Of a stretch of 64,000 bases of DNA, positions 1-62,717 are shown one piece after another (the first letter of the stretch is position 1; every line of letters starts with the position of its first letter). The stretch is from a virus (Duplodnaviria; Caudoviricetes), in IMG/VR virus record IMGVR_UViG_3300045526_000331, positions 5,858-69,857 of that record. One strand, given 5' to 3'. Below the pieces are notes generated by a model. It was not told the DNA's origin. It did not search any database and saw only the letters and a program-made list of their open reading frames with translations. A program made the translations under genes and the position numbers.

Positions 1-2445
1 GAGTTTACGGAGGATAGGGGGTTTAGGACTATAGAGAAACGTTGTCAGAGGGATGAGAATGGAAACTTCTCCTGGGTTCCTGTGTCAGCCATCCCTACAT
101 ACTTTCGTTCTTTATTGCCAACTTGCTCAGAGACTGTCCATGGTATGCAAGCCATAGTAGATGATGGCAATAACTCTGAGGTTGTTGTTTGTCAGAGGTA
201 TCAGGGGGTTATGAGGTGGGTGAGGAATGGGAAGAGAATCCCCAACCGTTTCCATAAAAAGGGGCCTTTGGTGACCAAGGAGCAATTTCTATCTTCCTTC
301 GGACCTATCTCCGAACTGGAGACAAAGTCTGGCTCGGGGTTTGATTGGGCTGGCCAGAGTAAGGAGATTGTTGACGTGGCCCTAAACGAAGCCATGAAAG
401 ACATCCCACTGACAGGCACAGATCCCCAACTTAAGATAATTCTGGCCGCCATGGGGAAAATCCCCTCAAAGGCATTTGACAGAGCTGAGACTCTTAGGAG
501 AATTGGGGTAGCCTCGATCACAAAGAGAACTGGACTACCCATAGACGAACTTTCTAGAGTTCTTAGGGAGGAATTGGATAGACAAGGACCCCTTGATCCT
601 GTAACGGGCAAAGTGATTGAGGGACTGGGTGAAGCAGCGGACATATTAATCAACGGTGCGAAATTCGGGACGGAAGCCGAAGCATTGGAAAGAGTTGGGC
701 AGAGGGTTCTTCAGGCCTCTGTTGCCTCCCTGTCCCCCCAATCCGCCTCGGTTGTGACCAGCCTCATGTCTGGCGGAGTGGTCGGAGCTATTGATGCCGC
801 AGTTGCCATAGGCCTTGATAAGCTCCCTGAAGAAGCCAATGTATTTGTCAAGCCGGTAGTAGACGCAGCAAAAACTCTTTTGAGTGGGCAGCCGGTTACA
901 ATGACCGACCTTGTGAACTCTGCAATTCAGGGGGGACTTTCTGACAAGGCATCTAAGGCCATCAATAAAGCTATTGGAGCTAACATAGTCTCTGCGGGTA
1001 CAATAGAGGTTCTGGCAGAATCGCTTCTTAGTGGGGGTCTGGGTGAAGTAGGAAAGCTGTTCACAGACTTTAATAACCTAGACTCCATAATCAGTCTGCC
1101 AGAGCCGTACTCGGGGGTCCCCAAACTGGCAAGCTCAGTGCTTGGACTTTTTGGCCAGGAGGGTGGCCTTCAGAACTTTTTTGGCGAAGGTGGAATAGGA
1201 TTAGAAGCCCTATCTTCCTTTTTCGGCCCGGAGTTGCAACCCGCTCTGACTATTCTGAAGGGGGTGAAAGATTTAGCCGGACTACTTAAGGGTGGCGCTA
1301 ACCAGGAGTGCCCCTGTGGTCCTAAATGCCGCAAGACTGAGCACGGGAAGGGTAGCGATGGCATTAACACTCTAGAATCATGTCGTTCTTTGCCATCTAA
1401 TACGGCCAATTCCTATTCTGGTTCTAATGTTCCCGTACCCAACAACACAGGTCCGGTGGCAAAAGAGGAAAAACTGGTCAATACCTTGATAGGGTCTCCC
1501 CTCATACCCTCCAACCCTACAAACCTCACCGCATCGATTAACGAGATTCCCCGAGTGGGAGAGATGGCTAGTAGGTTTTACGATGCCAGATACGCAGACA
1601 CCATCGATTTCATTCTTGAGCACGCCTATACCTACGAAGCAACTGAAAAAGCCCTGAAAGTAGCAGATAACAACATTACCAAAATAGAATCTATTGAGCG
1701 TAAGCTAATAGACGCGATGTTCAACCTGATCAACGACATAGTCTGTAATAAGAGGGGGGGAGGGGGCCTCTCTGTTATGACCGAGTTAATCGGAGATGTG
1801 AGAGAAAACGCCCAGGCAATCCGGGACCTGTACAACTATGTCAAGGCAATTGACTTAAAAAAGAGAGGCAAGAAAGCGGGGGTTAGGGTCACACCCAGCA
1901 TTGCCAAAACCTTTCAAAACATCTCCAGCCTATCCAAACTATCGGCAAGAAACTGCAAGGGGGCGTCAAAAATCCTCAATGGGGCGGTTACACCAGCCCA
2001 TTCAGAGTGGCTTAGCATTGAACCAGGGAATAACTTCAGTAGTGTGCTTGGAGTGTACTCTCCTGACATACCTGTTCCATTTCCCAACGAGCAAACCATC
2101 TTTAACAACTCCAGGGTGCTGAGTGAATCCCTAAATGAGAGGCTGGGGGAGTACGACCCCCAGTCTGGTGACGAAGTAAACTCATTACTCAATCCTAGAC
2201 AGGCCCAGGCCCTGCAGAATACCCCCTTCAGCTCAATTCCCACCTCTCTGGAGGAGGGGATAGAAAGACAGAGGCAATCTCTATCTCCCCTGGAGGAGGG
2301 GATAGAAAGACAGAGGCAATCTCTATCTCCTCTGGAGGAGGGCCAACTCTCACCTCAAAGTCTGGCCGGCCCAAGTCCAATTGAGGGTGGTGAAAGCCTC
2401 TACGACAGGATTACTAATCGCACCGGTCAAACTAATTGTGAATAA
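1..2445 (+). CDS. Large hypothetical, probably virion, protein; 5' end lies outside the window
   Basis: Frame of track ORF 82..2445 is open back to base 1; Gly/Ser/Leu-rich with Cys clusters; directly precedes terminase. Confidence 0.75.
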   Translation, partial: EFTEDRGFRTIEKRCQRDENGNFSWVPVSAIPTYFRSLLPTCSETVHGMQAIVDDGNNSEVVVCQRYQGVMRWVRNGKRIPNRFHKKGPLVTKEQFLSSFGPISELETKSGSGFDWAGQSKEIVDVALNEAMKDIPLTGTDPQLKIILAAMGKIPSKAFDRAETLRRIGVASITKRTGLPIDELSRVLREELDRQGPLDPVTGKVIEGLGEAADILINGAKFGTEAEALERVGQRVLQASVASLSPQSASVVTSLMSGGVVGAIDAAVAIGLDKLPEEANVFVKPVVDAAKTLLSGQPVTMTDLVNSAIQGGLSDKASKAINKAIGANIVSAGTIEVLAESLLSGGLGEVGKLFTDFNNLDSIISLPEPYSGVPKLASSVLGLFGQEGGLQNFFGEGGIGLEALSSFFGPELQPALTILKGVKDLAGLLKGGANQECPCGPKCRKTEHGKGSDGINTLESCRSLPSNTANSYSGSNVPVPNNTGPVAKEEKLVNTLIGSPLIPSNPTNLTASINEIPRVGEMASRFYDARYADTIDFILEHAYTYEATEKALKVADNNITKIESIERKLIDAMFNLINDIVCNKRGGGGLSVMTELIGDVRENAQAIRDLYNYVKAIDLKKRGKKAGVRVTPSIAKTFQNISSLSKLSARNCKGASKILNGAVTPAHSEWLSIEPGNNFSSVLGVYSPDIPVPFPNEQTIFNNSRVLSESLNERLGEYDPQSGDEVNSLLNPRQAQALQNTPFSSIPTSLEEGIERQRQSLSPLEEGIERQRQSLSPLEEGQLSPQSLAGPSPIEGGESLYDRITNRTGQTNCE
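2248..2342 (+). repeat. In-frame 42-bp tandem repeat (about 2.3 copies) encoding LEEGIERQRQSLSP
   Basis: ctggaggaggggatagaaagacagaggcaatctctatctcc starts at 2248 and 2290, with a partial copy at 2332. Confidence 0.95.
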
Positions 2446-4018
2446 GGCAGAACTGGCCAGGGAGAAAGAACTGGTTAGAGAGATGGAGGGCAGAATAGAA
2501 AGCCTGAGTTTCTCCGAAAAGAAGGAGCTTTTGCGCCTAAAATGCCGAACTGAGTTCATTACCTACGCCAAATACCTGACCCGGGAAGTGAGTACCAATG
2601 GTATATTCCAGCCCTTCCCTGTTCACGAACTGATTTGTGACTGGGTCCAGAAGATCTGTGATGGGGACAACGACTATCAAAGGTCGGCCATTTCCCTTCC
2701 CCCTCGAACGGGAAAAAGCCTGCTGATTAGTAAGCTAATGCCATCTTGGCAGTTAGGTAGAAGTCCGTCCGCTCAGTTTATCATGGCAAGCTACGCCTTG
2801 AAACTTAGCCATGAGAACAGCAGGGCAATTCTTGAGTATTGCTCTAGCCCAGCCTTTCAATGGATATTCCCCGAATGCACTATTGACAGAAAAGAGTGCA
2901 ATCTGAAAATCATTCGCACTGGCCAGGGAGGGAAGATAATGTCTGCGTCGGCAGGATCTGGGGTGACCGGGTTTGGCTTTGGAGTCATTTCCAGCGAGGA
3001 TTTGCCCGGCATTGGTATTCTCGATGACGTGATTGAGGACGGTAACTCTATTCAAGTTCTTGACACTACTTGGGGGTGGGTCAGTCAGCAGTTTGGAACT
3101 CGCATGCTGCCCAACTTCGCCCTTATGAGCATGGGAACTAGATTCCATGAGTATGACATTATTGGCAGACAGGTAGAAAGCGACCCGGACAAATGGAAAG
3201 TTTTGAACGTACCTGCTCTGTGTGTAGATGAGGAGAACGACCCCCTTAATCGTAGCTTGGGACAGTCCCATTGGCCCGAGTTCTTCCCTGTGGATGTCCT
3301 GGAGAGTGTGAAGAACCAGGATGAGAAAACCTTCCAGAGCCTGTATCAAGGGGATCCTCAGTCGGGGAATGCCTCTGTGTTTAAGGACTCCTGGTTTGAG
3401 TACCACGACAAGAACAAAGAGTCTTATGAGTATGTTTTTGCCACTGCGGATACTGCGCTGAAGAGGCAGGAGATGAACGACCCTTCTGTGGTCTGCATCT
3501 TCGGGGTGGTAAAAAAGAGCAGAAAGCTACACCTGCTCCATGTCTACAAAGAGCGGATGGAGTTTCCAGAACTGCTCAAGGCCATGCCTGTTTGGATGAA
3601 GCTGTGGAAGGTAAGGGCACTTTACATCGAGAGTAGAGCTTCCGGATTACCCCTTATTCAAATGCTACGCAAAGAGCTTCAGATTCCTGTTCGGGAACTC
3701 ATTCCGACAAAGGACAAGGTTTTGAGAGCTAATGAGGTTGCACCTATTGCCGAGGATGGAAGAGTCTCTATCTACTCCAACATCCCCGATCTGCCCGAAC
3801 TCATGTCAGAACTGGTTTCTTTTCCATTTACAAAGCATGACGACTTTGTCGATTCATTTTCTTCCGGCCTGAAGGTGTACAGGGATGAGATTATGGGTGG
3901 ATCTAAGGCTGCTCATGGGGGTGTGCGAATGAAGCTGCCCATGCTCAATCACCTTGGAGGAGTTCAGAGATTAACCTCCCGCCTTGGAAGAGGAGCGGTA
4001 AGGACGACATATTTGTAA
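2438..4018 (+). CDS. terL: Terminase large subunit (probable GTG start 2438; track start 2381)
   Basis: Walker A PPRTGKS, Walker B GILDDVIED, C-terminal nuclease motifs ADTA and HDDFVDS. Confidence 0.93.
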   Translation: MNKAELAREKELVREMEGRIESLSFSEKKELLRLKCRTEFITYAKYLTREVSTNGIFQPFPVHELICDWVQKICDGDNDYQRSAISLPPRTGKSLLISKLMPSWQLGRSPSAQFIMASYALKLSHENSRAILEYCSSPAFQWIFPECTIDRKECNLKIIRTGQGGKIMSASAGSGVTGFGFGVISSEDLPGIGILDDVIEDGNSIQVLDTTWGWVSQQFGTRMLPNFALMSMGTRFHEYDIIGRQVESDPDKWKVLNVPALCVDEENDPLNRSLGQSHWPEFFPVDVLESVKNQDEKTFQSLYQGDPQSGNASVFKDSWFEYHDKNKESYEYVFATADTALKRQEMNDPSVVCIFGVVKKSRKLHLLHVYKERMEFPELLKAMPVWMKLWKVRALYIESRASGLPLIQMLRKELQIPVRELIPTKDKVLRANEVAPIAEDGRVSIYSNIPDLPELMSELVSFPFTKHDDFVDSFSSGLKVYRDEIMGGSKAAHGGVRMKLPMLNHLGGVQRLTSRLGRGAVRTTYL

Positions 4019-4024
4019 AACTTA

Positions 4025-4033
4025 TGGTAGAAT
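4025..4033 (+). promoter_or_regulatory. Extended -10 promoter TGGTAGAAT for the thioredoxin-sigma operon
   Basis: TGn-TAnnnT ending 28 nt upstream of ATG 4062. Confidence 0.55.
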
Positions 4034-4061: not shown

Positions 4062-4394
4062 ATGACGCAATTTAAGTACAGGGCGGTTTTGTTCTCACAA
4101 CCGGGCTGCCCTGCTTGCCAAGCCATGAAGCCAATTTGGGGGAAGGTAGCAGGAGAGATTGCGGAGGAATACCCTCACTACAATGTGGGCTGGGGAGAAT
4201 TTAATGTCCTTGATGACTCCTGGGAGTTTTTAGAGTCGCTGGTTCCGGGGACCAGTGGACAGGGAACCCCGGAAATCGCCCTGTTCGATGAAGAGTCAAA
4301 CCTGATCGGATTCAACGGTGATGGCATTATGCCGGCAAGTCAACTCAAGGACTGGATTCTCAATTCTATTTCAAGAGGGGTTGTTACTGAATGA
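4062..4394 (+). CDS. Thioredoxin-like protein
   Basis: CPAC CxxC motif after a hydrophobic strand; GTPE cis-Pro loop. Confidence 0.8.
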   Translation: MTQFKYRAVLFSQPGCPACQAMKPIWGKVAGEIAEEYPHYNVGWGEFNVLDDSWEFLESLVPGTSGQGTPEIALFDEESNLIGFNGDGIMPASQLKDWILNSISRGVVTE

Positions 4395-5110
4395 GACCTG
4401 TAGAGCTTCAGAGACTTAACGCAGCCCGGAGAAAAACTGAGGAGGAGAGGACTAGAGATAAGCATATTCGGGAGAATATGTGGAAGGCTAGCCAGGCTGC
4501 GAGAAAGGTGTCTAGCTTTAGTGGCGTACCGTTTGAAGATCTGAGATCTGTGGCCCTTGAGGCTATGGTAAAACTCTACGCTAAGTGGGACCCCAGCAAA
4601 GCTAACTTTAGCACCTGGCTGAATAGAAGTCTGACCTACCAGCTTCTGAACTACCTCAGGGACGGATCGAGAATGGTCAAGTTCCCTCGGGCCTATTCAG
4701 ATACCTACATGAGGATTAGAAAGACCATTGCTGAAAGGCCAGAGGTCACCCACAAAGAGTTGTCTGAAAGGACAGGGATCAGCGAACAGCTAATTTCTGA
4801 AACCAGGGAGGCGTTTCAGATGTCCTATGTCGAGATTGACGAGGACACAGATATTGCCATGGATGAAGCATTGTTGGAGGATAATAGCCTTGGTAGTTTG
4901 TTTGGGGACTATAGAGAGGTTCTGGAGCGACTGTCAGATTTACCCCAAGACGAGTACAACTTCTTAACCGATGTGTACATTCACAAGAGGGCCCAGTCTA
5001 CCATTTACAGAAAGTATGGAAATGCAGGCACACCCGAAGCCATCAAGAAAAAGACCGAGGAGATTATGTCCAAGGTCCTGAATAGGGAGGAGGACAATGG
5101 CCAGAGCTAA
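4391..5110 (+). CDS. Phage sigma-70 family (group 3/SigF-like) sigma factor
   Basis: Region 2-like segment EDLRSVALEAMVKLYAKWDPSKANFSTW...NYLRD...VKFPR; region 3 HTH; degenerate region 4. Confidence 0.88.
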   Translation: MRPVELQRLNAARRKTEEERTRDKHIRENMWKASQAARKVSSFSGVPFEDLRSVALEAMVKLYAKWDPSKANFSTWLNRSLTYQLLNYLRDGSRMVKFPRAYSDTYMRIRKTIAERPEVTHKELSERTGISEQLISETREAFQMSYVEIDEDTDIAMDEALLEDNSLGSLFGDYREVLERLSDLPQDEYNFLTDVYIHKRAQSTIYRKYGNAGTPEAIKKKTEEIMSKVLNREEDNGQS

Positions 5111-5807
5111 GGTTATCATTGCCGGAGTTCAGTACGGCAAAGGAGATTTTAGCAAGAAATGGACAGCTTTGGTCAGCTCCTATGAGGTAGGAGTTAAAGT
5201 GAGGGCGGCAGATGCCGCCTTCCTGGTTGAAGCATGTGGAATGGTCGAACGCTATGCGAAGATCATGAGCAGGGGTAGGGTGGAGTTCAAGGTGGTGAAT
5301 AAGGTGTTTAATGGGAGGAGGGTCAAGGGGATTGCCCTTGTCACTCCCAACTCTGGATATGAGGTTTGGGTTGGCAAGTCCCAGTTAATGGACAGATTGT
5401 TTCCCCGCACCCTTCTCCGAGATGAATCAAAGGAGAACAGGAAGAGGGCGTTGAGAGCCCTCCGGGCCATCATCGACCCCCAGATTAAGGAGTTTAGAAT
5501 GGCGAATATAGAGAATCTTAGGGGAGGATTCTATCACATCGATCACGTCTACCCATTCAAACTCTTGGTCCAGGAGTGGTGCAGGAAAGAAGGATTGGAC
5601 CTGGAGACCATACCGGTGAAATGCAGGGGGATGTTTTGCCAGCTAAGCTCAGTGTCCATGGCCGAAAGCTGGTTTGACTACCACGCTCTGAACGCAAAGC
5701 TGCAGATTCTCAATGCAGCGGAGAATTTGAGCAAGGGGTCTAAGTACTTTGGTGAGACAGTAACTCTTCCAGAATCCGGCCAGCTTCCTGAGCAACCATC
5801 TGACTAA
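5097..5807 (+). CDS. DCL/DUF3223-like protein with a His-containing C-terminal domain
   Basis: Pattern W..LV..Y.VG...DA.FL...Y.KI..G...FKV; YHIDHVYPF. Confidence 0.55.
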   Translation: MARAKVIIAGVQYGKGDFSKKWTALVSSYEVGVKVRAADAAFLVEACGMVERYAKIMSRGRVEFKVVNKVFNGRRVKGIALVTPNSGYEVWVGKSQLMDRLFPRTLLRDESKENRKRALRALRAIIDPQIKEFRMANIENLRGGFYHIDHVYPFKLLVQEWCRKEGLDLETIPVKCRGMFCQLSSVSMAESWFDYHALNAKLQILNAAENLSKGSKYFGETVTLPESGQLPEQPSD

Positions 5808-9282: not shown

Positions 9283-10059
9283 TCAGACAATTTCTGCGAC
9301 GTTGAACGTAATGGTCTTGGGAGTAGGATCGAGATTCACACCACCACCTGCAGTCCCGCCATCATCTTGAACCTGGAAGGTAAAGGTGGTGTAGGGAGTA
9401 CCAAACTCTCCAGTAGCCGGGGTAAAGGTAAGGAGGGCAATACTGGCCGCCGGTACAAAATCGCCTGCGGTGACAGGAGTGCCATCCAAATCCAAAGTAC
9501 CATCGGCAGGAAGCGTGGTAATCTTCACTGCGTAGAGGGAGTTGGCAGGGTTGTCGTTAGTATCGCTAAAACCAAAGTCAGAGGCGGAGAAGGTATAGAC
9601 CTCATCTTCGTCAATAGAAATGGTCTTGCTGGTTCCGGTCGGCGGGTTATTGACCGGGGCTACGTTGTCAAAGATGGAGAGAAGGGTGACACTAAGGTTG
9701 TACACAGCCACCATGAAGTGGTAATCACCCTCTCCAGCAATACCCACGTACCGAGATACATTGACAAGTTGATCGTTCAGGGAGTCGACGTAGGGATCGG
9801 TCGGAACATCGACATTACTAACCAGGGCATCAATGACCAGTTCAAGCATGCCATAGGCATATTGTTTGGCCGAGTAGCCCATGCTAGGGCCACATCGGTT
9901 GAACTTGTCCAGGAGTGCTTGTCTGGCTGCGGGGGTATTGCTACCTTCGGAGTAGTTCTCCAGGAGTTCATCTCCCAGAACGGTCTCGAACCAGGACTGG
10001 AGTTCAAGCTTATAGTTGTATTCGATGCCGATAAGGCGTCTTAGGGTGGATACTGACAT
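9283..10059 (-). CDS. Virion protein with C-terminal cadherin-like/Ig domain
   Basis: NNPPTGTSKTISIDEDEVYTFSASDFGFSD...LTFTP...TFTFQVQDDGG. Confidence 0.75.
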   Translation of the reverse strand: MSVSTLRRLIGIEYNYKLELQSWFETVLGDELLENYSEGSNTPAARQALLDKFNRCGPSMGYSAKQYAYGMLELVIDALVSNVDVPTDPYVDSLNDQLVNVSRYVGIAGEGDYHFMVAVYNLSVTLLSIFDNVAPVNNPPTGTSKTISIDEDEVYTFSASDFGFSDTNDNPANSLYAVKITTLPADGTLDLDGTPVTAGDFVPAASIALLTFTPATGEFGTPYTTFTFQVQDDGGTAGGGVNLDPTPKTITFNVAEIV

Positions 10060-10099: not shown

Positions 10100-10108
10100 G
10101 CTTTCAAC
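10100..10108 (-). promoter_or_regulatory. Late-type motif GTTGAAAGC
   Basis: 40 nt upstream of the ORF starting at 10059. Confidence 0.7.
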
Positions 10109-10111: not shown

Positions 10112-10459
10112 TTACGCCCTTCTAACCCTCAGTACGCTACCGGCTAGGTACATGCCCCCAATGGGAACAGGAGGAGTGGCAGCCGCAGCTTCAGAATCGT
10201 TGGCGAAATCCCTAATCCCGGTAAAGTCGATTCGGTTAAAGGGGATGGGAAGGGAGCCATTTACTGTTTTGCAGACTCCGTCCGAATCGACATAGTACAG
10301 TTCGGCTTTCGGCTCATTTAGAAACAGCTCTCCCCTCTTTGCCGAGCTATCGTCGTTATCGTACAGGTTCTGGAGGTATTCCTGGTCGTGGTCGGGGTTT
10401 GCGGTAAAGCGCACTCCCCAGCGGGGCATTGGGGTGAGGGGCATGGCGAATCTGGACAC
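10112..10459 (-). CDS. Hypothetical virion protein
   Basis: GELFLNEPKAELYYVD resembles tail-fibre N-terminal modules; late motif at 10471-10479. Confidence 0.7.
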   Translation of the reverse strand: MSRFAMPLTPMPRWGVRFTANPDHDQEYLQNLYDNDDSSAKRGELFLNEPKAELYYVDSDGVCKTVNGSLPIPFNRIDFTGIRDFANDSEAAAATPPVPIGGMYLAGSVLRVRRA

Positions 10460-10514
10460 TGCTCTATTTGGCTTTCAACTTTGCTAGAATGCCGCCCAAC
10501 CGAAGCCTTTCTCC

Positions 10515-11123
10515 ATGGATGTCATTATTTTTCTCGGACCGGACAGAGTGGGAAAATCCACTTTGATCTCTAACACTGCTTGTCATCTGAAACAGGCAGG
10601 ATATAGAGTAAATACCTTGCATTTTTCCGAGGTAAAGCCCTCCCATCACTCCCCCATTGACCAATACATCAATAGCATGGGGAAAGACTTTGACACCTCA
10701 GTCGATTACCTGCTTATTGACAGGTTTGTACCAGACACCCTGTTCTACGAGAGGAACAGAGCTAATTTCCCCAAGATTGATGAGTCCTGGGCAAAGACCG
10801 CCGAGTCCATTTTGCTGGGGAAACTCCCTGAGGGTAGCAGAGTGTACGTAGTCCATCTTTGCATGGATTGGACAGAGGACATAGCCAAACGTCACAGGGA
10901 GGAAGTTAAGCTACTTTATCCTGATTGCACAGAGTACTGGATTGGTATCAATCTAGAGAAGAGAAAAACAGAGCATATAATGTACGATCGTTTTGTCTCA
11001 GAATACTTTAGGGGTGAAGCCTCTACCACAGGGCTGAAAGAATACCGTGTAGTATCTAGACCATTTGCCCATAAAAAAACCGTATTTGATGTGACCAACA
11101 TCCCAGTCAAAGACCTGAATTAG
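10515..11123 (+). CDS. Thymidylate-kinase-like P-loop nucleotide kinase
   Basis: GPDRVGKST P-loop and IDRF motif; TGCTAGAAT at 10482-10490. Confidence 0.75.
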   Translation: MDVIIFLGPDRVGKSTLISNTACHLKQAGYRVNTLHFSEVKPSHHSPIDQYINSMGKDFDTSVDYLLIDRFVPDTLFYERNRANFPKIDESWAKTAESILLGKLPEGSRVYVVHLCMDWTEDIAKRHREEVKLLYPDCTEYWIGINLEKRKTEHIMYDRFVSEYFRGEASTTGLKEYRVVSRPFAHKKTVFDVTNIPVKDLN

Positions 11124-11185
11124 GTGAAAGCAGGATAAGGAGTGAGGCTAAGCCTTGACCCATCAGACTTTTCCAACTCCTTCCA

Positions 11186-12193: not shown

Positions 12194-12275
12194 TTGTGTA
12201 CCGGTCTATATAGGGCTTTCAACTTTCTCATTTTGGCCCCTGTGCGGTTAAAGCTGAGAGTAGACTACTCCCCCT

Positions 12276-14834: not shown

Positions 14835-14876
14835 GGCAATGGGGGATGGTCTTCTAAACTGCTTTCAACGACTGCC

Positions 14877-16198: not shown

Positions 16199-16264
16199 GA
16201 CAGAAGGGTCTGTATGATTACGGGCTAATGCCTAAAAGGCTTTCAACACCCCACCAGAGCAGAT

Positions 16265-18522: not shown

Positions 18523-18797
18523 TATTCTCTAGTGCTTTCAACGGATTCTGAAGATTTAAAGACCACATCCAGGTCCATGATGCTGTTGTAGAGGTCTTCC
18601 CTGCTGAGTTCCCCCCTCTCATACATGTCAATGACCTCTTCCGCCCCTTCAACATACACCCCGTGCTTTGAGTCGGTCAGGATATTGATTCCTCCCATGC
18701 TTTCTGCTGCGTCTTCACTCGGAGTTCCAGACTTCTTAAATCCTTTAGCCATTTTTCCTGGTAGGTAGGTAGGTATTGAAGCCAGCTCTGTGACCAC
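18522..18797 (-). CDS. Small hypothetical protein (true start may be internal)
   Basis: AEEVIDMYERGELSREDLY segment. Confidence 0.6.
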   Translation of the reverse strand: MVTELASIPTYLPGKMAKGFKKSGTPSEDAAESMGGINILTDSKHGVYVEGAEEVIDMYERGELSREDLYNSIMDLDVVFKSSESVESTRE

Positions 18798-19856: not shown

Positions 19857-19925
19857 GGGTGGTATGGGGGATACTGTGCCTTCAACTCCTTTCCGTTGAA
19901 ATGATAAGTAGGGGCAGATCTTTTT

Positions 19926-23117: not shown

Positions 23118-23911
23118 AAACCATCCAAACTTTTTTTAAAACTGAAGGCCAGGTAAACTCGCTCGATTTTGGGTCGGGGCAGGAGTTCAATCATATTAGG
23201 GGAGACTCTGTCTATAGGGCCTTCCTTAGAAAAGAACTTGTAGACTCCTATAGGATGGATGTGGAGGTCACCGGAGAAAACATAGACACTTTAAAGCTCA
23301 CCAACCAGCAATTACTGACATGGGACGATCATTGGATCGATCCTCAAGCCGGCCTGTGCATCGATCCCCTCATCCGGTCAGTAAACCTTCAAAGAAACTC
23401 CCTGGTCTATGCAAACTTCAGTGTACCCAGGGCTAAGCTGGAGGAGCTTAACCTGGAGGGGAATGGAAAGCTTACCCACCTCTACATACACTGCACCCCC
23501 GAGCTGAAAAAACTCAATTTATCCGGCTGTACCTCTCTGCAGCATATCAGTATGGGGGAGAACAAGGAGATAATGGAGCTGAATGCGAAGGATTGCAACC
23601 TATCCACCTCTTCTCTGGAGCAATTACTCAGGGACTTCCGTCCGACTATCACCTCCAGTGCTAATGATAGAGGAGCGGGAATGTTCCGGAAAACACATAG
23701 TACCTTGCTGGATCTGAGGGGAAACCCTATTGACTGGTCCAATAGGAAGATAGCCTCTAAGATCCGAATGCTACTCTGTAACAACTGGATTGTTAAGTGG
23801 GATGTCAACCCTCCGACTGAGGTCATTCCTCCCGCTCTCTACGCATTTTACGTTGAAAGCAAGATAGCGAACAGAATAGAGTATGGCCGATCTCCGGACC
23901 AGGTTTCTTGA
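23114..23911 (+). CDS. Leucine-rich-repeat protein
   Basis: LEELNLEGNGKLTHL, LKKLNLSGCTSLQHI, LLDLRGNPI. Confidence 0.75.
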   Translation: MKTIQTFFKTEGQVNSLDFGSGQEFNHIRGDSVYRAFLRKELVDSYRMDVEVTGENIDTLKLTNQQLLTWDDHWIDPQAGLCIDPLIRSVNLQRNSLVYANFSVPRAKLEELNLEGNGKLTHLYIHCTPELKKLNLSGCTSLQHISMGENKEIMELNAKDCNLSTSSLEQLLRDFRPTITSSANDRGAGMFRKTHSTLLDLRGNPIDWSNRKIASKIRMLLCNNWIVKWDVNPPTEVIPPALYAFYVESKIANRIEYGRSPDQVS

Positions 23912-25404: not shown

Positions 25405-25447
25405 GGGGGTTCATAACGGCTATGTCGCCTCTAGAAAGCTTTCAACC

Positions 25448-25819: not shown

Positions 25820-26110
25820 CTAGATGCTTTCACCTTCAGGGAGGGGAAATGGATAGGGTGTTGGGCTGAAGAGGACTTCAAACCACTCTCCGCGCTCATT
25901 ACACCAATACAGGGAGGGTTCTTCCCCCGGAGGCTCATACCACACCATCTGTTTCTTCGCATTAGGGGTGAGGAGGGTGGACGGGGGCTTTGAGCCGTGT
26001 TTGAACTTAACAATTCGCCCCCCAAGACTTATCTCATTTCTAAAAAGGGCATGGGATGGGGGTAATGCTGAGGGTCTTTCGTCTAAAGACCACCAAGGGG
26101 CTTCTTCCAT
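25820..26110 (-). CDS. Hypothetical protein
   Basis: 96-aa ORF in the tail fibre operon. Confidence 0.55.
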   Translation of the reverse strand: MEEAPWWSLDERPSALPPSHALFRNEISLGGRIVKFKHGSKPPSTLLTPNAKKQMVWYEPPGEEPSLYWCNERGEWFEVLFSPTPYPFPLPEGESI

Positions 26111-31112: not shown

Positions 31113-31364
31113 TTAAAAGTTTCCTCCGTCAGTTAGAGTGAGTTTGGTGTTAAGCTCATTGGCGATGAACTTCCCATTTAGCTGGCTGTAGACAGGGATA
31201 CTTCCATTCACCGCTTCTTCGTAGTCGATAACGGACTGTCTTTCCTCTAGAGCTTTCAACTGAGAGAGGGTGACAGGTTCGGAGTCATCAACTGCTTCCG
31301 GAAGATTTTTTATTCTGCTGACTCCCGCAAAAGTCAGATCGGTATTGATTAACCTGGTTTCCAT
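31113..31364 (-). CDS. Small virion protein
   Basis: RIKNLPEAVDDSEPVTLSQL; ends DGGNF. Confidence 0.65.
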   Translation of the reverse strand: METRLINTDLTFAGVSRIKNLPEAVDDSEPVTLSQLKALEERQSVIDYEEAVNGSIPVYSQLNGKFIANELNTKLTLTDGGNF

Positions 31365-31945: not shown

Positions 31946-32030
31946 CTCGTCCAGATTCTAAACAGCTTTCAACTTTTTCTCAAAGTAGCCAAAATAGGTT
32001 TAAGGCATGGAGTAGGTACGTAGTAAGGCC

Positions 32031-33091: not shown

Positions 33092-33100
33092 GTTGAAAGC
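33092..33100 (+). promoter_or_regulatory. Late-type motif GTTGAAAGC upstream of the tail sheath gene
   Basis: 35 nt before the start. Confidence 0.75.
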
Positions 33101-35976: not shown

Positions 35977-37521
35977 ATGGCAAGACGATTCCGGAAACCA
36001 GCCTCACAGGAAATCATCCTAAATGGGAATGGGCCTCTCACTGAGGCCCAGCCCAAACGTGCTGTGTACATCGAGATGTTCAAAGCTGGTCCGCAGATTA
36101 GTTCAGCGGGGCAAAAGATGGTTTTTAGTGAAGAGGATCTGGATCAGGTCGTCAATAGCTACAACCCGTCTAAGCACGAAGCACCGCTCATCATCGGCCA
36201 TGAGCAGGATGATTCCACTCCTGCTCTGGGCTGGGTGAGAGAAGTGTGGCGCAAGGGCAAATCCTTGTGGGGTAAGATCGAGCTTACCCCCAAGGCCGAG
36301 CGCCTAATTAGAGACGGTGTTTTCAAAAAGGTAAGTAGCTCGTTCTACTTACCTGATGCCGATACCAATCCCGTTCCCGGGTCTTTGCATCTGCGTCATC
36401 TTGGACTTGTGTCCATACCTGCGGTGAAAGGCTTAACGGCTTTTTCCGAACTTATCCCTGAAGGTTCGATAACAATTACTTCAAGGGAGTCTTCTATCTC
36501 ATTTCAAGAAACTCTACCTACTATGGCAAAAAGAAAAACCGAAGCCTCTCCTCAGGTTGTCGATCACGCTGACGGGAAAGGCATGACCATTAATGTGAAC
36601 ATTAATGGGCTGAAGACCGAGGCGGACACCGAACCCACCGTGGTCGAGGAAACTGGCTTTGAGAGCCAAAATTCCGGTCCTGCTGCGCCCTATGCGGCTC
36701 AGTATGCGGACGATGGTCTACCCGGCGCACCTGTTCCGGGCATGGCCGACCCTTCCCTGCAGAGAATGGACATGGTTGAGGGTCCAGATGGCAAGGAAAT
36801 GGGCGATGAGGATGGTGGCGAAGGCGATCCGATTCCTCCCAGCGGCGAGGGTCCGGATGGGATGGAGGGCGAGCAAGATGACATGGATGTAGATGATGTG
36901 TCCGGTGACGACGACGAAGCGGTGGCCTCTGATCTCGCATCCAAGTACACCGAAGAGCAGCTCATCATGGCCCTGTATCAACTTGCCAATTCCGGCAATG
37001 AGTCGGACATGGGCGAGGGCTACATGGGCTATTCCGAAGACGAGTCGGACTCTGTCTCCTTCTCTGAAGAAGATCCCATGGCCGAAAGAGTTGCTCAGCT
37101 TGAAGAAGAGCTGGCAGCTCAACGTCGGATGATGAGGCAGCGCGAGATTAGTGACTTCTGTGAGAAGCTCTATGACCAGGGCAAACTCACCGAGGCCGTC
37201 ATCCCCTCTAATGACCTGGTAAGATTCATGGAGACCCTCAATGCCAAGAACACTGTGAACTTCAGTGAGACTGGCAAGTCCTCCCAGTTCGACTTCATGA
37301 AGTCCATGCTGGAAAATCTCCCCTCCATGGTCAACTTCAATGAAGTGGCTACGCAGGCATCCGCTCCCCCGAAGAAGAGAAAAGTGGGTAAGCCTGCTGC
37401 TGATGGCTACGTGTTTGATGAGAGAAATGCGGAGATCCACGCCAAGGCTGTGGAGTACTCTGAGGCTAACGGTGTGGACTACATGTCCGCCGTCCGTCTT
37501 GTCATTTCCGAATCATTTTAG
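35977..37521 (+). CDS. Mu-like prohead protease fused to an acidic scaffold
   Basis: APLIIGHE, ALGWVRE, KKVSSSFY, HLGLVSIPAVKGL; long Asp/Glu/Gly linker; coiled-coil C terminus. Confidence 0.85.
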   Translation: MARRFRKPASQEIILNGNGPLTEAQPKRAVYIEMFKAGPQISSAGQKMVFSEEDLDQVVNSYNPSKHEAPLIIGHEQDDSTPALGWVREVWRKGKSLWGKIELTPKAERLIRDGVFKKVSSSFYLPDADTNPVPGSLHLRHLGLVSIPAVKGLTAFSELIPEGSITITSRESSISFQETLPTMAKRKTEASPQVVDHADGKGMTINVNINGLKTEADTEPTVVEETGFESQNSGPAAPYAAQYADDGLPGAPVPGMADPSLQRMDMVEGPDGKEMGDEDGGEGDPIPPSGEGPDGMEGEQDDMDVDDVSGDDDEAVASDLASKYTEEQLIMALYQLANSGNESDMGEGYMGYSEDESDSVSFSEEDPMAERVAQLEEELAAQRRMMRQREISDFCEKLYDQGKLTEAVIPSNDLVRFMETLNAKNTVNFSETGKSSQFDFMKSMLENLPSMVNFNEVATQASAPPKKRKVGKPAADGYVFDERNAEIHAKAVEYSEANGVDYMSAVRLVISESF

Positions 37522-37529
37522 TTGAAAGC
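37521..37529 (+). promoter_or_regulatory. Late-type motif upstream of the cement/capsid leader
   Basis: Exact GTTGAAAGC overlapping the scaffold stop codon. Confidence 0.7.
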
Positions 37530-39822: not shown

Positions 39823-39853
39823 GTTGAAAGCGGTATAGAGGCAGATTTCACCA

Positions 39854-40645: not shown

Positions 40646-40678
40646 AGTTGAAAGCACTGTAGAAGCAGACCATAACCA

Positions 40679-42214: not shown

Positions 42215-42389
42215 TGGATGGTTGGGGGTCTTTGAGCAGTGTCTTCAACAAGACAACTGCTATACTCAGTCCGGCAAGAATTGGGGCCATTAGAGAAAAA
42301 AGCAGAATTACCACTATAGCTGAAAATAGTGCTAGTTGTGGCGTCATTGTTGAAAGCGCATTAGGGAGTGTGCGCAGACACAGTCCCAT
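42192..42389 (-). CDS. Small membrane protein (probable start MTPQLALF)
   Basis: Hydrophobic helices; GTGCTAAGAT at 42388-42397. Confidence 0.5.
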   Translation of the reverse strand: MGLCLRTLPNALSTMTPQLALFSAIVVILLFSLMAPILAGLSIAVVLLKTLLKDPQPSNDHDEQA

Positions 42390-48612: not shown

Positions 48613-48669
48613 GGCCTAGTTGATTGAGGTCATCAACTAGCTTTCAACTAGCCCTCAACGGAATTTTAA

Positions 48670-49950: not shown

Positions 49951-50770
49951 AATATGCCTCTTGGGTGAGATTGTTTAATCCGTAGCTACTACTGTCTTTC
50001 AACACAGTGTAGATACTTGGCCTGAACAGGTCCTCAGGCAAAAGGTTTCTGGACATCGGGATCTGTCTACCCCACCTGGAATGCAAGGTACTGACACAGA
50101 CCCTATACCCCATACTGGCCAATTCGACCAACTGGGTTTGGACAAAGCGAAGTTTTCTCCTTGTCCAAACATATCCGCACCCGTATTGGGAGAACTGTAT
50201 GGGGATATGAATGTAGATCAGGGTTGTTTCTTTGTCTACCTCCTGGATGGGGAAATTGAAAATGGTGCGGCGTCGGTAAAGGAGGCGCTTGTCCTTTGCC
50301 ATGAGGGAAAACCTCTCAATGGAGGGAAAATCGGGGCGGACCGGGTTGTGCTTATCTATCTGCAAGGACCACCCCCTGAAGTGATAATTAAATCCTCCTT
50401 GGGAGAGCAAGCAGTAGTAAATTGCTACGTCGGTCCAATTCCAAGACCTCGTCCCCCTCTTGGCTGATTTGTAGTTCAGCCACTTTAGGCGATTTTCAAC
50501 ATAGGCTATGTTCCTACCCTGATCGAAACGATTTGGGTCGGTCCATACCTCTTCGATAATAGACTTTGAGTTGGGCAAAGCAAGCATTTTATGGACCTCG
50601 AGAATGTACTTCTCATTGGTACATAGAGTAATCGCCCTGGAATTACTACTGTAGGCTAGTTCTGCAGAGGAGCAGTCCAGAACCATAATACTAAGTCCGG
50701 ACAGATTGCCATTATCCGCGAGAAATTGGTCGTGGGTTTTGGTCATTCTGCCCGGACAGACTATGGTCAT
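49934..50770 (-). CDS. Dam-like (D12 class) methyltransferase fold, catalytic motifs degenerate
   Basis: AIYYCLLSQGGFN and TLIYIHIP...ELASMGYRVCVS follow the Dam layout, but FxGxG and DPPY are missing. Confidence 0.55.
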   Translation of the reverse strand: MTIVCPGRMTKTHDQFLADNGNLSGLSIMVLDCSSAELAYSSNSRAITLCTNEKYILEVHKMLALPNSKSIIEEVWTDPNRFDQGRNIAYVENRLKWLNYKSAKRGTRSWNWTDVAIYYCLLSQGGFNYHFRGWSLQIDKHNPVRPDFPSIERFSLMAKDKRLLYRRRTIFNFPIQEVDKETTLIYIHIPIQFSQYGCGYVWTRRKLRFVQTQLVELASMGYRVCVSTLHSRWGRQIPMSRNLLPEDLFRPSIYTVLKDSSSYGLNNLTQEAYYAAGI

Positions 50771-52503: not shown

Positions 52504-53004
52504 TTACGAGCTTTCAACCGTAAGCTCCGACATGTGGTGAAGGTTCCGTTTAGGTACGAAGTATGCCGGTCTTCCTTTGGCCGGATCCGACCAAAACTTC
52601 TCTTGCATGACGTCCCCTGCCACACACCACCCGTGGATCCTGATGTCGGTGCTTGACTCGGCCGTGACCAATACGATTTTCTTCTCCCTGCGCTCATCTC
52701 TCTGCACAATTAGATCGTGCCAGTGTTTAGACCGGGTCTTTACCTCTATGTCACCCGGTAGATCTGCGCTTCCCCTTACTGCTTGCTGATCTCGAAACAG
52801 TTCGGCCTCTACCCCCAGATGTACTGCTACTGCGACTTCTCCCAGTGCTCCGAGAAGGTGAAGAGACAGTGCCTGATTTCCCACCGCTGCTGCGTTGTTT
52901 CTCCCCAACAGGCCGGACTGCTCGTTTACTGACTGTCTTCTTTTTGCCTCTTCCTCTGCCAGTGCTAGTTGGGCCGGAGTTAGGACTACTTGGATGTGGG
53001 GCAT
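52504..53004 (-). CDS. Hypothetical protein with PD-(D/E)XK-like motif
   Basis: GALGEVAVA...ADLPGDIEVKTR; own CCGTGCTAGGAT at 53026-53037. Confidence 0.7.
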   Translation of the reverse strand: MPHIQVVLTPAQLALAEEEAKRRQSVNEQSGLLGRNNAAAVGNQALSLHLLGALGEVAVAVHLGVEAELFRDQQAVRGSADLPGDIEVKTRSKHWHDLIVQRDERREKKIVLVTAESSTDIRIHGWCVAGDVMQEKFWSDPAKGRPAYFVPKRNLHHMSELTVESS

Positions 53005-56340: not shown

Positions 56341-57098
56341 TCTTCAAGCTCATCGTCTCTTGCCCACCTCGCCTGGTAGGATCGATCTTTAAGTCTGCAC
56401 TGACAGTCTCCGGTGGGGATAAATACTTGACCCTGGTCTCCAACCTATACAAGGACCTGCTCCTCTTTGACCTGAAGAAGGTCAGAAAGTCAAACAGCAG
56501 CAATGCTCCAAGAAGACCCTACTGGTACGCCCCTAGAGGCCTATGCTCCTCAGATGCTTCGTTCCAAATCTGGTCGGCATCCTGGAAGTTTCTGGAAAAG
56601 AAACACCTGGGCAAGTCTAATTCCTGGGACCAGGAAAAGATCCTTGGACTTCTTGGCGATCTGGAAATTCTGGGGTTTATGGGTGAGTACTCCGGTTACT
56701 CCCCCCGGCTTAGAGTTAAAAAGGAGTCTGAAACTGCATCGTCTCGACTAAAATTAGTGGAAACCCTGCTAAGCATTAAGTCCGACCAGCACTTTGAATT
56801 CCTTGCCTCCACCCTGACGAAAGACCTGATCTTCTACTCCAGGGCCCCTGAGGGATCACTTGATCGCGCTTTGTCAAAGCGCCTCAACTCTCTGAACTTC
56901 TCCCGATTCACCAAAGGAGACTCTCTCTTGTTTGAGAAGACGGAGATTGATTGCTCATTCCCCTATTGCAAGGTGGGTCTAAAGGATGGGTATAAGATCT
57001 ACGGGGCGCATAAGTCCTTGCCGTATTTCGCCCAAACCCCTCCGGGATCCGGCCTAATCGATGTCAAGATTATTGACAACTTTGTAGACAAAGCCTAG
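56337..57098 (+). CDS. Hypothetical protein
   Basis: 253-aa ORF with an ATGA overlap. Confidence 0.65.
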   Translation: MIFKLIVSCPPRLVGSIFKSALTVSGGDKYLTLVSNLYKDLLLFDLKKVRKSNSSNAPRRPYWYAPRGLCSSDASFQIWSASWKFLEKKHLGKSNSWDQEKILGLLGDLEILGFMGEYSGYSPRLRVKKESETASSRLKLVETLLSIKSDQHFEFLASTLTKDLIFYSRAPEGSLDRALSKRLNSLNFSRFTKGDSLLFEKTEIDCSFPYCKVGLKDGYKIYGAHKSLPYFAQTPPGSGLIDVKIIDNFVDKA

Positions 57099-58634: not shown

Positions 58635-58653
58635 GCCCAATCATAGCACGGAT

Positions 58654-60583: not shown

Positions 60584-60991
60584 CTATTTGATATACCTGT
60601 CATGCCACTCTATACTGAATAGTACCCGGGCAATAAGTCTTCCTAGCCTGCTCGGGGTCTTGTCCGACCAGATATTTTGCAATCCGACTTTCCAATAACC
60701 TTTCGCCCCGGGGTAATAACCCCCCGCCCCCGAGAGATACGTCTCGGTATGCGCAGAATAAGTTACCTTTACCCCGTACAGAATCCCATACCCCGCCCCA
60801 CAAGGGAACAAACTATTTATTTCCCTCCTCGCCCTCTTTCTCTCCTTCGCAGCAGGGACGGAGACATTCTTCCTGTACCACCAATCCCCCGTCAGCTCCC
60901 AGAACCGGTCCTGTCCATGATATGACCAGGCAAGGCGGCACGATCTCCACCCCCTCCTCATTCCGTTGAAAGTAGAACGAGCAGACCTCAT
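60584..60991 (-). CDS. Basic Trp/Tyr-rich hypothetical protein
   Basis: GTGCTAAGAT lies 6 nt before the ATG. Confidence 0.6.
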   Translation of the reverse strand: MRSARSTFNGMRRGWRSCRLAWSYHGQDRFWELTGDWWYRKNVSVPAAKERKRARREINSLFPCGAGYGILYGVKVTYSAHTETYLSGAGGYYPGAKGYWKVGLQNIWSDKTPSRLGRLIARVLFSIEWHDRYIK

Positions 60992-61010
60992 TCACCCATC
61001 TTAGCACAGA

Positions 61011-61496
61011 GTGGCCCTCCCGCAACGTTTCAACGATCCCTCCATCCTCCGAGAAGAGAGCTTCGCACCTGGCCTCAGCCGCCCCAATCCCGACCAATTC
61101 GGCCAGTCTGCATCTCTCGATGTGTACGTGGACGACGAGGGGAACACCAACGTCCAGGGGAAGATTCTCAGCTATGCCTCGACCGACCCCATCGACTGCG
61201 AAGAGGTCCCCCGGTTCAGCTCCGATAACAACTTTGTAGCCGGCCTGGCCAAGTCCATCCCGGGCGTACCCCCCGGTGCCTATTTCCAGTACGCAGGCGA
61301 TAAGAAAAAAGCCCCGGAAGGATATGCCTATTGCAACGGAGGGGTGTACACCCTGGCAGATGGCACGGAGTGGGTAACCCCGTACCTGATCACTCCGCCC
61401 AGTAAGTTCTCCACCTATATCCAGAAGTTGCCCGAGGGGGCTACTTTCACCGGCAGATACTACAGCCCCTTCTGGACCGGATCTATAGGGAGTTGA
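61011..61496 (+). CDS. Isolated late-type hypothetical protein
   Basis: GTTGAAAGT at 60965-60973; C-rich third codon positions. Confidence 0.65.
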   Translation: MALPQRFNDPSILREESFAPGLSRPNPDQFGQSASLDVYVDDEGNTNVQGKILSYASTDPIDCEEVPRFSSDNNFVAGLAKSIPGVPPGAYFQYAGDKKKAPEGYAYCNGGVYTLADGTEWVTPYLITPPSKFSTYIQKLPEGATFTGRYYSPFWTGSIGS

Positions 61497-61936: not shown

Positions 61937-62251
61937 TTAGAGAAGTGAGTCGACAAGGTAGGTATTGTAAATCCTTTCAGATATGTAGATCAGGTCGCTT
62001 CGGTCACTAATGCAAGCAATTGGGCGTACACTACCATCCTTGTGCCTAAAGTACACCCTTGCAGAACCCCTCCTAGGCAATAGGGAGAGACTATTGATAA
62101 GTCTATGGGGATTTAAACTCGACTTTTTGCACAACTCGGACAACTCCTCCCTTACCCTTTGCACCGTCCCTGACCAATCTGTGGCATATACAACATGGTA
62201 GTAGAACGGGGTGTATTTGGGGGAAAGCGATCTGTGGTCGATGGGGATCAT
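61937..62251 (-). CDS. Small hypothetical protein
   Basis: 104-aa ORF downstream of a structured leader. Confidence 0.55.
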   Translation of the reverse strand: MIPIDHRSLSPKYTPFYYHVVYATDWSGTVQRVREELSELCKKSSLNPHRLINSLSLLPRRGSARVYFRHKDGSVRPIACISDRSDLIYISERIYNTYLVDSLL

Positions 62252-62259
62252 GAGCCTCC

Positions 62260-62353
62260 GGGCGCAGCCTCCATCCTACACGAATACGGCCCGGGCCACC
62301 GGCCCGGATCTGGGATCCGGCATCGCCGGTCCCAGCCACGCCCGTTAGGGCGT
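62260..62353 (-). ncRNA. Candidate structured leader or ncRNA
   Basis: Closing stem GGGCGUGG/CUGCGCCC encloses two GC-rich hairpins; alternative 5' hairpin. Confidence 0.4.
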
Positions 62354-62354
62354 A

Positions 62355-62717
62355 TCAGATCAACTTATTTACCATGTAAATGTCGTACAGGCTTTCAACC
62401 ACAGCCTCCTCTCTATCTCCTTCCCTTAACCTCCCCGCCTCAATAATATCCGTACCAACCTTGTACCCCAGGGTCAACTCCTCCCCATCAAACCTACAGT
62501 TTATATCGAACAACCTCTCCTTCCACCCCGTCTCCGACCCCAAAATCCTCACTACCTCCATCAAAGAGTCATAGACCCAATAGGGTATGGCATCCTTAGC
62601 TTCGATGGGCTTACCCACGCCCCCCATAAACTTCTGCCTGTGGTACTCCAAGATCAATTTGCCAGCCCTAATCCACTCAGTCATGGTTTGCCTCCAGGTC
62701 AGCTCCCACCATAGCAT
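62355..62717 (-). CDS. Small hypothetical protein, paralog-array member
   Basis: C-terminal LREGDREEAVV. Confidence 0.55.
   Translation of the reverse strand: MLWWELTWRQTMTEWIRAGKLILEYHRQKFMGGVGKPIEAKDAIPYWVYDSLMEVVRILGSETGWKERLFDINCRFDGEELTLGYKVGTDIIEAGRLREGDREEAVVESLYDIYMVNKLI

Follow-up and report, generated by a model that had tools for sequence, protein, structure and literature searches.

The late promoters of T4-type phages, including those of T4-like cyanophages, carry TATAAATA at -10, which is read by gp55 together with gp33 and the gp45 clamp. Other phage sigma factors are paired with late or middle promoters, namely gp28 and gp33/34 in SPO1 and gp36 in phiEco32. Among the group-3 sigma factors, the promoters of Bacillus SigB (GTTTAA-N12-14-GGGTAT, with GTTTAA as the -35 element) and sigma-28 (TAAA-N15-GCCGATAA) are described, as is the pilA1 promoter of Synechocystis SigF. 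For the TIM5-like cyanophages, which are widespread in the oceans, no description of the regulation of gene expression was found in the searchable literature.

The DNA analysed here, a window of 64,000 nt from a genome of 69,857 bp, belongs to a small relative of cyanophage S-TIM5, with which it has about 50 genes in common. This phage falls in a separate clade of small genomes (64-71 kb contigs sampled) with a sigma clade of its own. In this 70-kb cyanophage and its relatives, a nine-letter DNA word precedes nearly every virion gene block. The word, GTTGAAAGC, has 18 exact matches on the two strands of the window. The 17 that the earlier note had listed are all at the correct coordinates, and one more, on the minus strand at 31252-31260, had been overlooked. 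In dinucleotide shuffles of the window (n=100), 0.46 +/- 0.70 copies are expected, with a maximum of 3, which agrees with the chance expectation of about 0.5 given previously. The whole genome contains 19 copies, the last of which is located 4.9 kb left of the window. All 19 have the same orientation as an ORF that starts 3' of the box, and 16 of them lie within 60 nt of its start (binomial p = 5e-20); the earlier note had placed most of its copies 12-45 nt before the start. The three that lie outside this class are those at 31252 and 37521 (Table 1) and the copy left of the window, for which the distance rests on an ambiguous start codon. The one- and two-mismatch variants previously listed do exist, with the correction that the one placed at 49996 is at 49995 by recount. 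The variant at 2389 is doubtful as a signal, because the coding sequence around it is conserved at the protein level in the relatives.

Table 1. Boxes, box variants and elements of the sigma operon in the window
Feature	Position	Strand	Location relative to genes	Remarks
Host-type extended -10 (TGgTAGAAT)	4025..4033	+	28 nt before thioredoxin-like gene heading the sigma operon	
Phage sigma factor, proposed box reader	4391..5110	+		Pfam Sigma70_r2 1.5e-7; TIGR02980 SigB/F/G 1.5e-10
Exact box	10100..10108	-	40 nt before ORF 9283-10059, homologue of S-TIM5 virion protein gp112	S-TIM5 gp112 also preceded by box
Exact box, N4-TAG	10471..10479	-	Before ORF 10112-10459, virion protein gp114 homologue	Same place in S-TIM5 and 7/7 relatives
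Variant GGTGAAAGC	11123..11131	+	104 nt before PhoH gene 11236-11982	
Exact box	12215..12223	-	21 nt before small ORF 11939-12193	
Exact box, N4-TAG	14861..14869	-	26 nt before tail-fibre-like gene 12741-14834 (697 aa)	
Exact box, N4-TAG	16239..16247	-	Before tail tube gene 15770-16198	
Exact box	18534..18542	-	20 nt before portal gene 16594-18513	S-TIM5 portal: box 30 nt upstream
Variant GTTGAAGGC	19878..19886	-	Before ORF 19338-19856	69-nt divergent gap, back to back with 19895
Variant GTTGAAATG	19895..19903	+	Before 19926-23117 (1063 aa), virion protein gp140 homologue	
Exact box, N4-TAG	23852..23860	+	22 nt before 23883-24785, virion protein gp142 homologue	
Exact box, N4-TAG	25438..25446	-	33 nt before small ORF 25120-25404	
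Variant GGTGAAAGC, N3-TAG	25826..25834	-	Before endonuclease-like ORF 25448-25804	
Exact box	31252..31260	-	Within ORF 31113-31364; 142 nt before fibre-like gene 29082-31109 (675 aa)	
Exact box, N4-TAG	31965..31973	-	19 nt before 31364-31945, virion protein gp146 homologue	Homologue aligned from residue 1
Weak variant GTTTAAGGC	31998..32006	+	Before 32031-32408, gp147 homologue	Divergent partner of 31965
Exact box	33092..33100	+	35 nt before tail sheath gene 33136-35967	
Exact box	37521..37529	+	Overlaps protease gene stop; capsid-module genes 130-150 nt on	Hairpins 3'
Exact box, N4-TAG	39823..39831	+	22 nt before 39854-40645, virion protein gp154 homologue	
Exact box, N4-TAG	40647..40655	+	23 nt before 40679-41029, virion protein gp155 homologue	
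Exact box, N4-TAG	42349..42357	+	40 nt before 42398-43339, gp156 homologue	
Exact box	48640..48648	-	27 nt before DUF7201 gene 48124-48612	
Variant GTTGAAAGA	49995..50003	-	44 nt before speD 49585-49950	
Exact box	52510..52518	-	23 nt before small ORF 52232-52486	
Variant GTTGAAAGT	60965..60973	+	Before ORF 61011-61496	
Exact box	62391..62399	-	Before small ORFs 62103-62339 / 61937-62251	

The alignment of 31 sites gives a simple architecture. The trinucleotide TAG is conserved at +13 to +15 (T 74%, A 77%, G 70%), and nine exact copies are directly followed by N4-TAG, the same number as counted before. The distance from box to TAG is constant, whereas that from box to ATG varies from 19 to ~150 nt, a spread that speaks against a translation signal. 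Where start codons are confirmed by alignment with S-TIM5 proteins from residue 1, they are found 18-23 nt 3' of the box, and with start codons as little as 18-19 nt away the box is not expected to be itself a -35 element. Counted from the box, each of the positions -40 to -1 has an information content of ~0 bits, which bears out the earlier statement that no -35 element is shared, and the content is also ~0 bits from +18 to +34, where a second box was looked for. The box is a non-palindromic 9-mer, and divergent gaps of 60-85 nt hold back-to-back boxes (19857-19925 in this phage; 57023-57082 in S-TIM5, with the two boxes 5 nt apart). This indicates that transcripts must begin in these gaps, where separate -35 boxes would not fit.

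The motif scan of the genome and its relatives that had been proposed in the earlier note finds the box at orthologous genes in nine genomes, which are this one, S-TIM5 and seven metagenomic relatives, and all nine have both the sigma gene and the box. The S-TIM5 genes preceded by the box are gp100, gp112, gp114, the tube, the portal, gp139/gp140, gp146/gp147, the sheath, gp154 and PhoH. The gp139/gp140 gap contains a back-to-back pair as at 19878/19895, and the gp146/gp147 gap contains an exact pair where 31965/31998 stand in the window. A box is also located ~100 nt before PhoH in six of the seven relatives, and 83 nt before it in S-TIM5. In S-TIM5 the form of the box is GTTTAAAG, with 25 of the 36 copies at 60 nt or less before a start (p = 6e-28), and it precedes 17 of the 47 genes annotated in the S-TIM5 record as virion or packaging genes, versus 8 of the 165 others (Fisher p = 1.6e-7).

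The two forms differ by a G or a T at position 4; GTTGAAAGC has the G and an invariant ninth base, and GTTTAAAG starts with GTTTAA. The GTTGAAAGC form is found in five genomes with a GC content of 44-57% and sigmas 57-100% identical to that of the window, and the GTTTAAAG form in four genomes with a GC content of 40-46% and sigmas 41-47% identical to it. Across the nine genomes, the form of the box goes with the clade of the phage sigma and not with base composition. The outgroup S-CBWM1, with a portal 36% identical and a sigma only 28% identical, shows no enrichment of the box (5 copies versus 20 for a control word).

The phage sigma has 138 homologues. Its region 4 is divergent in sequence and falls below the Pfam threshold, which the earlier note had read as degenerate. 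This reading is not supported, as the AlphaFold (AF2) model contains sigma-2, sigma-3 and sigma-4 domains, the latter with four helices (pLDDT 72-88), and Foldseek aligns the protein over nearly its full length to SigD, SigB, sigma-28 and sigma-S, with group-3 sigmas among the matches. Judged by this model, the phage sigma is a full three-domain group-3-like factor. Six of the seven relatives have, in the same position, a counterpart (TGnTAnnnT or TTGACA-17-TATAAT) of the host-type promoter at the head of its operon, which suggests a cascade from host to phage sigma. The phage contains a second promoter class, GTGCTAnnnT, which is of the extended -10 kind and fits TGnTAnnnT. The gene directly after sigma, translationally coupled to it in every relative, encodes a 236-aa protein without a known family. 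Among about 40 ORFs searched with Pfam, neither a phage RNA polymerase nor another recognisable transcription or DNA-binding regulator was found.

These observations suggest, with a probability of about 0.68, that GTTGAAAGC forms the core of a class of one-box promoters which is read by the phage sigma and serves the virion, tail and packaging-side genes along with a few more. As for a promoter class of a phage sigma-70-family factor, a sigma gene is present, the upstream element is enriched, and both are conserved together. The single-box virion-gene promoter proposed in the earlier note gains indirect support from the placement and orientation of the box, the fixed distance to TAG and free distance to ATG, the divergent gaps and the conservation in nine genomes. 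The role proposed for the sigma is also supported indirectly, by the box variant following the sigma clade and by the lack of box enrichment in S-CBWM1. From the sequences we infer that the box is used at a late stage, that transcription starts there and that this sigma is the reader. The idea of exclusively late use is not supported; PhoH, speD and the DUF7201 gene also have the box or a variant of it. These non-virion genes (PhoH, speD with a variant, DUF7201 and small ORFs) count against the one-box virion promoter class, and so, apparently, does the intact-looking region 4 of the model, given the absent -35.

In the mechanism that we propose, host RNA polymerase with its primary sigma would start at the extended -10 promoters (GTGCTAnnnT / TGnTAnnnT), which stand before the replication genes and the thioredoxin-sigma operon, and the phage sigma would then take the place of the host sigma on the core polymerase. 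The surface formed by regions 2 and 3.0 of sigma would read the 9-bp box as a -10-region element, roughly from -15 to -7, and a -35 contact would be unnecessary. The box fits such an element with a start in or beside TAG, and the start would be placed 5-7 nt past the box. A register with T at -1, A at +1 and G at +2 would best fit general start-site preferences. How the box is registered against the start site is conjecture, and in an alternative register TAG would lie at -12 to -10.

When compared with the described systems, the proposed class resembles the late promoters of T4-type phages in its single -10-region box without a -35, its virion genes, and its reader of the phage sigma-70 family following an early phase with host sigma. 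The box itself is unrelated to TATAAATA, and gp55 consists of region 2 only, whereas the sigma modelled here has sigma-2, -3 and -4. No gp33- or gp45-like product is found among the annotated S-TIM5 products, and the class is not known to be coupled to replication. A T4-type late system was rejected, because the consensus is absent and the sigma is not reduced to region 2. The extended -10 promoters (TGnTATAAT) used by the primary sigma are also single boxes, where the -35 contact gives way to contacts made immediately 5' of the -10 hexamer, but the late box has no TAnnnT hexamer, so that this identity was rejected and activity of the box with the primary sigma is not to be expected. Group-3 sigmas are the closest to the phage sigma in sequence and fold, and the box of the relatives begins like the SigB promoter. 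The promoters of this group are bipartite, with a spacer of 12-15 nt, while here the second box is absent and the genes start too near the box. A bipartite SigB/SigF/sigma-28 promoter was rejected on the ~0 bits on both sides of the box and the ATG 18-23 nt on. In SPO1 and phiEco32, a phage sigma likewise redirects the host core polymerase to a phage-specific consensus, with sigmas of other families and other consensus sequences, and with bipartite promoters in SPO1. A promoter of a single-subunit T7-like polymerase was rejected because Pfam gives no RNA polymerase family in the about 40 ORFs searched and the large ORFs left unassigned match virion proteins of S-TIM5.

The reader of the promoter may also be another factor, either a host alternative sigma or the host holoenzyme redirected by a phage activator, for which the 236-aa protein coupled to sigma in every relative is a candidate. 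The role of the phage sigma is deduced from co-occurrence, and non-structural genes such as PhoH have the box too. Nonetheless, this is unlikely, since genomes that differ in sample and GC have the box variant that goes with their phage sigma clade, a sigma contact would be expected to look like this box (non-palindromic, 9 bp long and at -10 distance from a TAG that resembles a start), and Pfam finds no DNA-binding regulator in the about 40 ORFs searched. It is considerably less probable that the box acts in RNA, as a processing site or as a leader element to which a factor of the phage or the host binds, with transcripts starting elsewhere. The strict co-orientation with genes would suit an RNA signal equally well, and the boxes at 31252, 23852 and 37521 fall within an upstream ORF or at its end, so that read-through RNA would include them. 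However, the back-to-back boxes would then require promoters within the opposing genes, the aligned sites have no conserved pairing partner sequence, and the Rfam matches in the window are tRNAs only. That the box is a -35-type element with the real -10 further 3' is highly improbable, for even though it contains TTGAAA, near TTGACA (paired with weak -10-like hexamers at 33093 in a consensus scan), the relatives have a GTTTAA identical to the -35 of Bacillus SigB promoters, and the sigma is in the SigB/F/G family (NCBIfam) with region 4 folded in the model, there is no information 12-18 nt past the box, where the -10 would be, the verified start codons would be upstream of such a start site, and sigma-70-like matches in the region equal the shuffle expectation.

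A further reading is that a full-length group-3-type sigma would work on a lone 9-bp -10-region box with no need of a -35 element, in two matched pairs (GTTGAAAGC and GTTTAAAG) that are one base apart, with specificity maybe held in a few residues of region 2.4. We put this forward tentatively, as a possibility that falls short of even odds. The helix of region 2.4 has a fixed difference, Q84/H84; the 34 clade-specific sigma residues are scattered along the entire protein, without concentration in the DNA-reading helix. Sigma clade and box variant may be associated through shared descent rather than co-adaptation, given that the association rests on one G/T change on the tree. Should the matched pairs be real, nature would supply two compact sigma-promoter pairs that are native to cyanobacteria and exclude each other.

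Combined with the extended -10 class, the box would provide a simple two-stage transcription map for the whole lineage, including the small-genome clade, which is known here from assemblies only. It predicts transcription units and putative late genes, among them PhoH and small ORFs without annotation. Two box variants occur naturally, and with their matching sigma clades they offer a system for studying the recognition of a one-box promoter by a group-3-like sigma, and the box/sigma pairs could be compact switches in cyanobacterial engineering.

The 9-bp proposed late-gene word GTTGAAAGC (the box) is found 18 times in the window, compared with 0.46 ± 0.70 matches in shuffled sequences, and the whole genome, a single contig of 69,857 bp of which the window covers bases 5858-69857, holds 19 exact copies and 21 copies with one mismatch. 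The 17 exact sites reported in the earlier note are all present, together with one at 31252-31260 on the minus strand that had been missed. Every exact copy is co-oriented with an ORF starting downstream and nine are directly followed by N4-TAG, both as first described. The placement is far from random: 16 of the 19 exact copies have that ORF start within 60 nt, a condition satisfied by some 4% of strand positions (p = 5e-20). The copy at 31252 lies inside a short ORF; if this ORF is a gene, the box there would be an internal promoter, and otherwise the ORF is not a true gene. The variant GGTGAAAGC had also been put forward as a signal, but its recurrence in two relatives falls inside the conserved peptide G-E-S-(P)-L-Y-D, so that its conservation is explained by the encoded protein and coding conservation is the more likely. 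A position weight matrix derived from the exact sites yielded no trustworthy extra sites, because its core is overfitted.

Features discussed in the text (window coordinates unless another genome is named)
Feature	Genome	Position	Strand	Context
GGTGAAAGC	window	2389-2397	+	before terminase gene; also present in L006 and L009
TGgTAGAAT	window	4025-4033		ahead of thioredoxin-sigma operon
236-aa protein	window	5097-5807	+	overlaps sigma stop codon
PhoH-upstream box	window	11123-11235 (box and leader)		
PhoH-upstream box	L006	17265		
PhoH-upstream box	L007	16891		
PhoH-upstream box	L008	16737		
PhoH-upstream box	L009	16837		
PhoH-upstream box	L010	16728		
Divergent gap	window	19857-19925		two variant boxes back to back, 8 nt apart
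Exact box	window	31252	-	inside 83-aa ORF 31113-31364 (-), 142 nt ahead of 675-aa fibre-like gene
Exact box	window	37521		GC-rich hairpins (GGGGGGCTCTGCCCCCC among them) come directly after it, 37530-37659, ahead of capsid-module genes
GTGCTAnnnT	window	42388-42397	-	
GTGCTAnnnT	window	47104-47113	-	
GTGCTAnnnT	window	49587-49596	-	
GTGCTAnnnT	window	58640-58649	-	
Late box facing extended -10	window	42349-42397		
Late box facing extended -10	window	60965-61007		

About 50 predicted proteins have homologues in cyanophage S-TIM5, including terminase, baseplate proteins, tube, sheath, protease and major capsid protein, as well as a Pol-gamma-like polymerase, PhoH and speD. The portal is 59% and the phage sigma factor 41% identical to those of S-TIM5, and together these similarities show that this 70-kb phage is related to the TIM5-like phages, which measure roughly 170 kb. 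No DNA-level match to any phage record was found. Public assemblies contain 138 members of the sigma family, and many of these lie on 63-71 kb contigs whose gene order is the same. One small-genome relative, L009 (a 63.7-kb contig, 57% GC), has a Phage_integrase gene at 19602-20465, close to the PhoH region, which may mean that some members of this clade are temperate.

In S-TIM5 the box takes the form GTTTAAAG, with 36 copies against 8 for the control word, 25 of them no more than 60 nt ahead of an annotated start (p = 6e-28). Of the 47 genes whose annotation is virion or packaging protein, 17 are preceded by one of these 25 copies, as are 8 of the 165 other genes (Fisher p = 1.6e-7). The window and S-TIM5 share box-bearing orthologues of gp100, gp112, gp114, tube, portal, sheath and gp154, and the divergent pairs gp139/gp140 and gp146/gp147. 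For PhoH, the box lies 83-113 nt upstream in both genomes (83 nt in S-TIM5), and one about 100 nt upstream is found in the window and five of seven relatives, which points to a conserved long leader, in contrast with the 20-40 nt leaders of the virion genes. These seven metagenomic loci were sampled around sigma homologues, and a motif scan of them, proposed in the earlier note, shows the box at the same places. The GTTGAAAGC form occurs in the window, L005, L006, L009 and L010 (GC 44-57%), with sigma factors 57-100% identical to that of the window, and the GTTTAAAG form in L007, L008, L011 and S-TIM5 (GC 40-46%; sigma 41-47% identical). The sigma alignment splits into two clades along exactly this line. 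Base composition was rejected as the cause of the difference, given that GTTGAAAGC is used at 44% GC (L006) and GTTTAAAG at 46% GC (L011). The outgroup phage S-CBWM1, which shares the portal type (36% identity) and has a sigma only 28% identical, shows no enrichment of the box, which has 5 copies there while the control word has 20.

For the sigma, Pfam reports region 2 alone, the nearest NCBIfam subfamily is SigB/SigF/SigG, far below the family cut-off, and among solved structures the closest match in sequence is with regions 2 to 3 of cyanobacterial SigA. The AlphaFold model, built from 31 homologues, contains sigma-2 (17-90), sigma-3 (100-142), a disordered linker (144-165) and a four-helix sigma-4 (167-230, pLDDT 72-88), and Foldseek aligned 217-253 columns with SigD, SigB, sigma-28, sigma-S and sigma-32. 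Region 4, previously considered degenerate, is therefore divergent but structurally present in the model. Residues separating the two clades amount to 34 of 239 overall and 4 of 21 on the helix equivalent to regions 2.3-2.4 (77, 80, 84 and 85, with Q84/H84 as a fixed difference). This rate is no higher than protein-wide: no concentration in the DNA-reading helix was found, and co-adaptation of sigma and box has no statistical support. The four residues are candidates for a change of specificity rather than evidence of one.

It is rather improbable that the same promoter has another reader, which would be either a host alternative sigma or the 236-aa protein whose gene is coupled to that of the sigma. 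The latter keeps its position in S-TIM5 (gp109) and in each of the seven relatives, which favors such a role, and it may be a sigma partner or anti-sigma; it has no family in Pfam, NCBIfam or PHROG and only a weak DUF3223 lead in Atlas. Nonetheless, among the about 40 ORFs searched with Pfam no phage-encoded RNA polymerase or other regulator was found, and two uncharacterised ORFs of 1030 and 1063 aa, considered as polymerases, match S-TIM5 baseplate-module and virion proteins.

A promoter function, probably with the sigma as reader, agrees with the anatomy of the box. When 31 exact sites, taken from this genome and two relatives, are aligned, essentially no information is seen at -40 to -1, which bears out the reported lack of a -35 element. 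After the 9-mer, T is found at +13 in 74%, A at +14 in 77% and G at +15 in 70% of the sites, with nothing conserved further downstream. The distance to TAG is fixed, unlike that to the start codon, which lies between 19 and 56 nt apart from outliers at 104-150 nt. The box is unlikely to act at the RNA level, given this free distance to the ATG and the back-to-back divergent pairs; at the box sites no known RNA family was found, Rfam reporting only three tRNAs. The divergent gap 19857-19925 of the window holds two variant boxes, and the orthologous gap of S-TIM5, of 60 nt, holds exact boxes 5 nt apart. The transcripts of both genes must start within these gaps, and nothing else in the sequence speaks as strongly for a promoter and against an RNA signal. 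The minimum of 18-19 nt between box and start codon is alike in the relatives and is anchored by starts aligning from residue 1 with S-TIM5 proteins, such as 31364-31945, the gp146 homologue. Together with the fixed TAG distance, this minimum excludes a -35 role for the box, whether for a host sigma or a SigB-like sigma, for which the start codons are too close and a downstream -10 signal is missing. The geometry would instead fit a -10-region element, with transcription starting in or beside TAG. Bacterial polymerases prefer to start at a purine (+1) that has a pyrimidine before it (-1) and G after it (+2), and from this we infer the register T(-1) A(+1) G(+2) for box promoters.

The late box is complemented by a second class, GTGCTAnnnT (18 sites, window 4025-63603), which appears to be a promoter-like extended -10 (TGnTAnnnT) for a primary sigma. 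It precedes the Pol-gamma-like polymerase, DNA ligase, dCMP deaminase, the tRNA cluster and the sigma operon, and in six of the seven relatives TGnTAnnnT or TTGACA-17-TATAAT is found at the same place upstream of the sigma operon. The host holoenzyme would thus produce the sigma from the extended -10 promoter and, in the simplest reading, the sigma, once made, would switch on the box genes. At two places a late box and an opposite-strand extended -10 face each other 30-40 nt apart, so that the two transcripts would overlap head-on, and the promoters could interfere with each other when early expression gives way to late. At 60991 an ATG lies 6 nt after the -10, a spacing that suggests an early mRNA without a leader.

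Phage sigmas that have a promoter class of their own are a well-known kind of system. No account of the box was found in the literature searched on S-TIM5 and TIM5-like phages, cyanophage late promoters and the 9-mer; the original S-TIM5 description lies outside that search, and GTTTAAAG may have been published before. Within this literature there is apparently no description of the consensus, of its one-box form paired with a full-length sigma, or of the two matched variants. What this window newly contributes is the clade with the G-variant and the link between the form of the box and the clades of the sigma.
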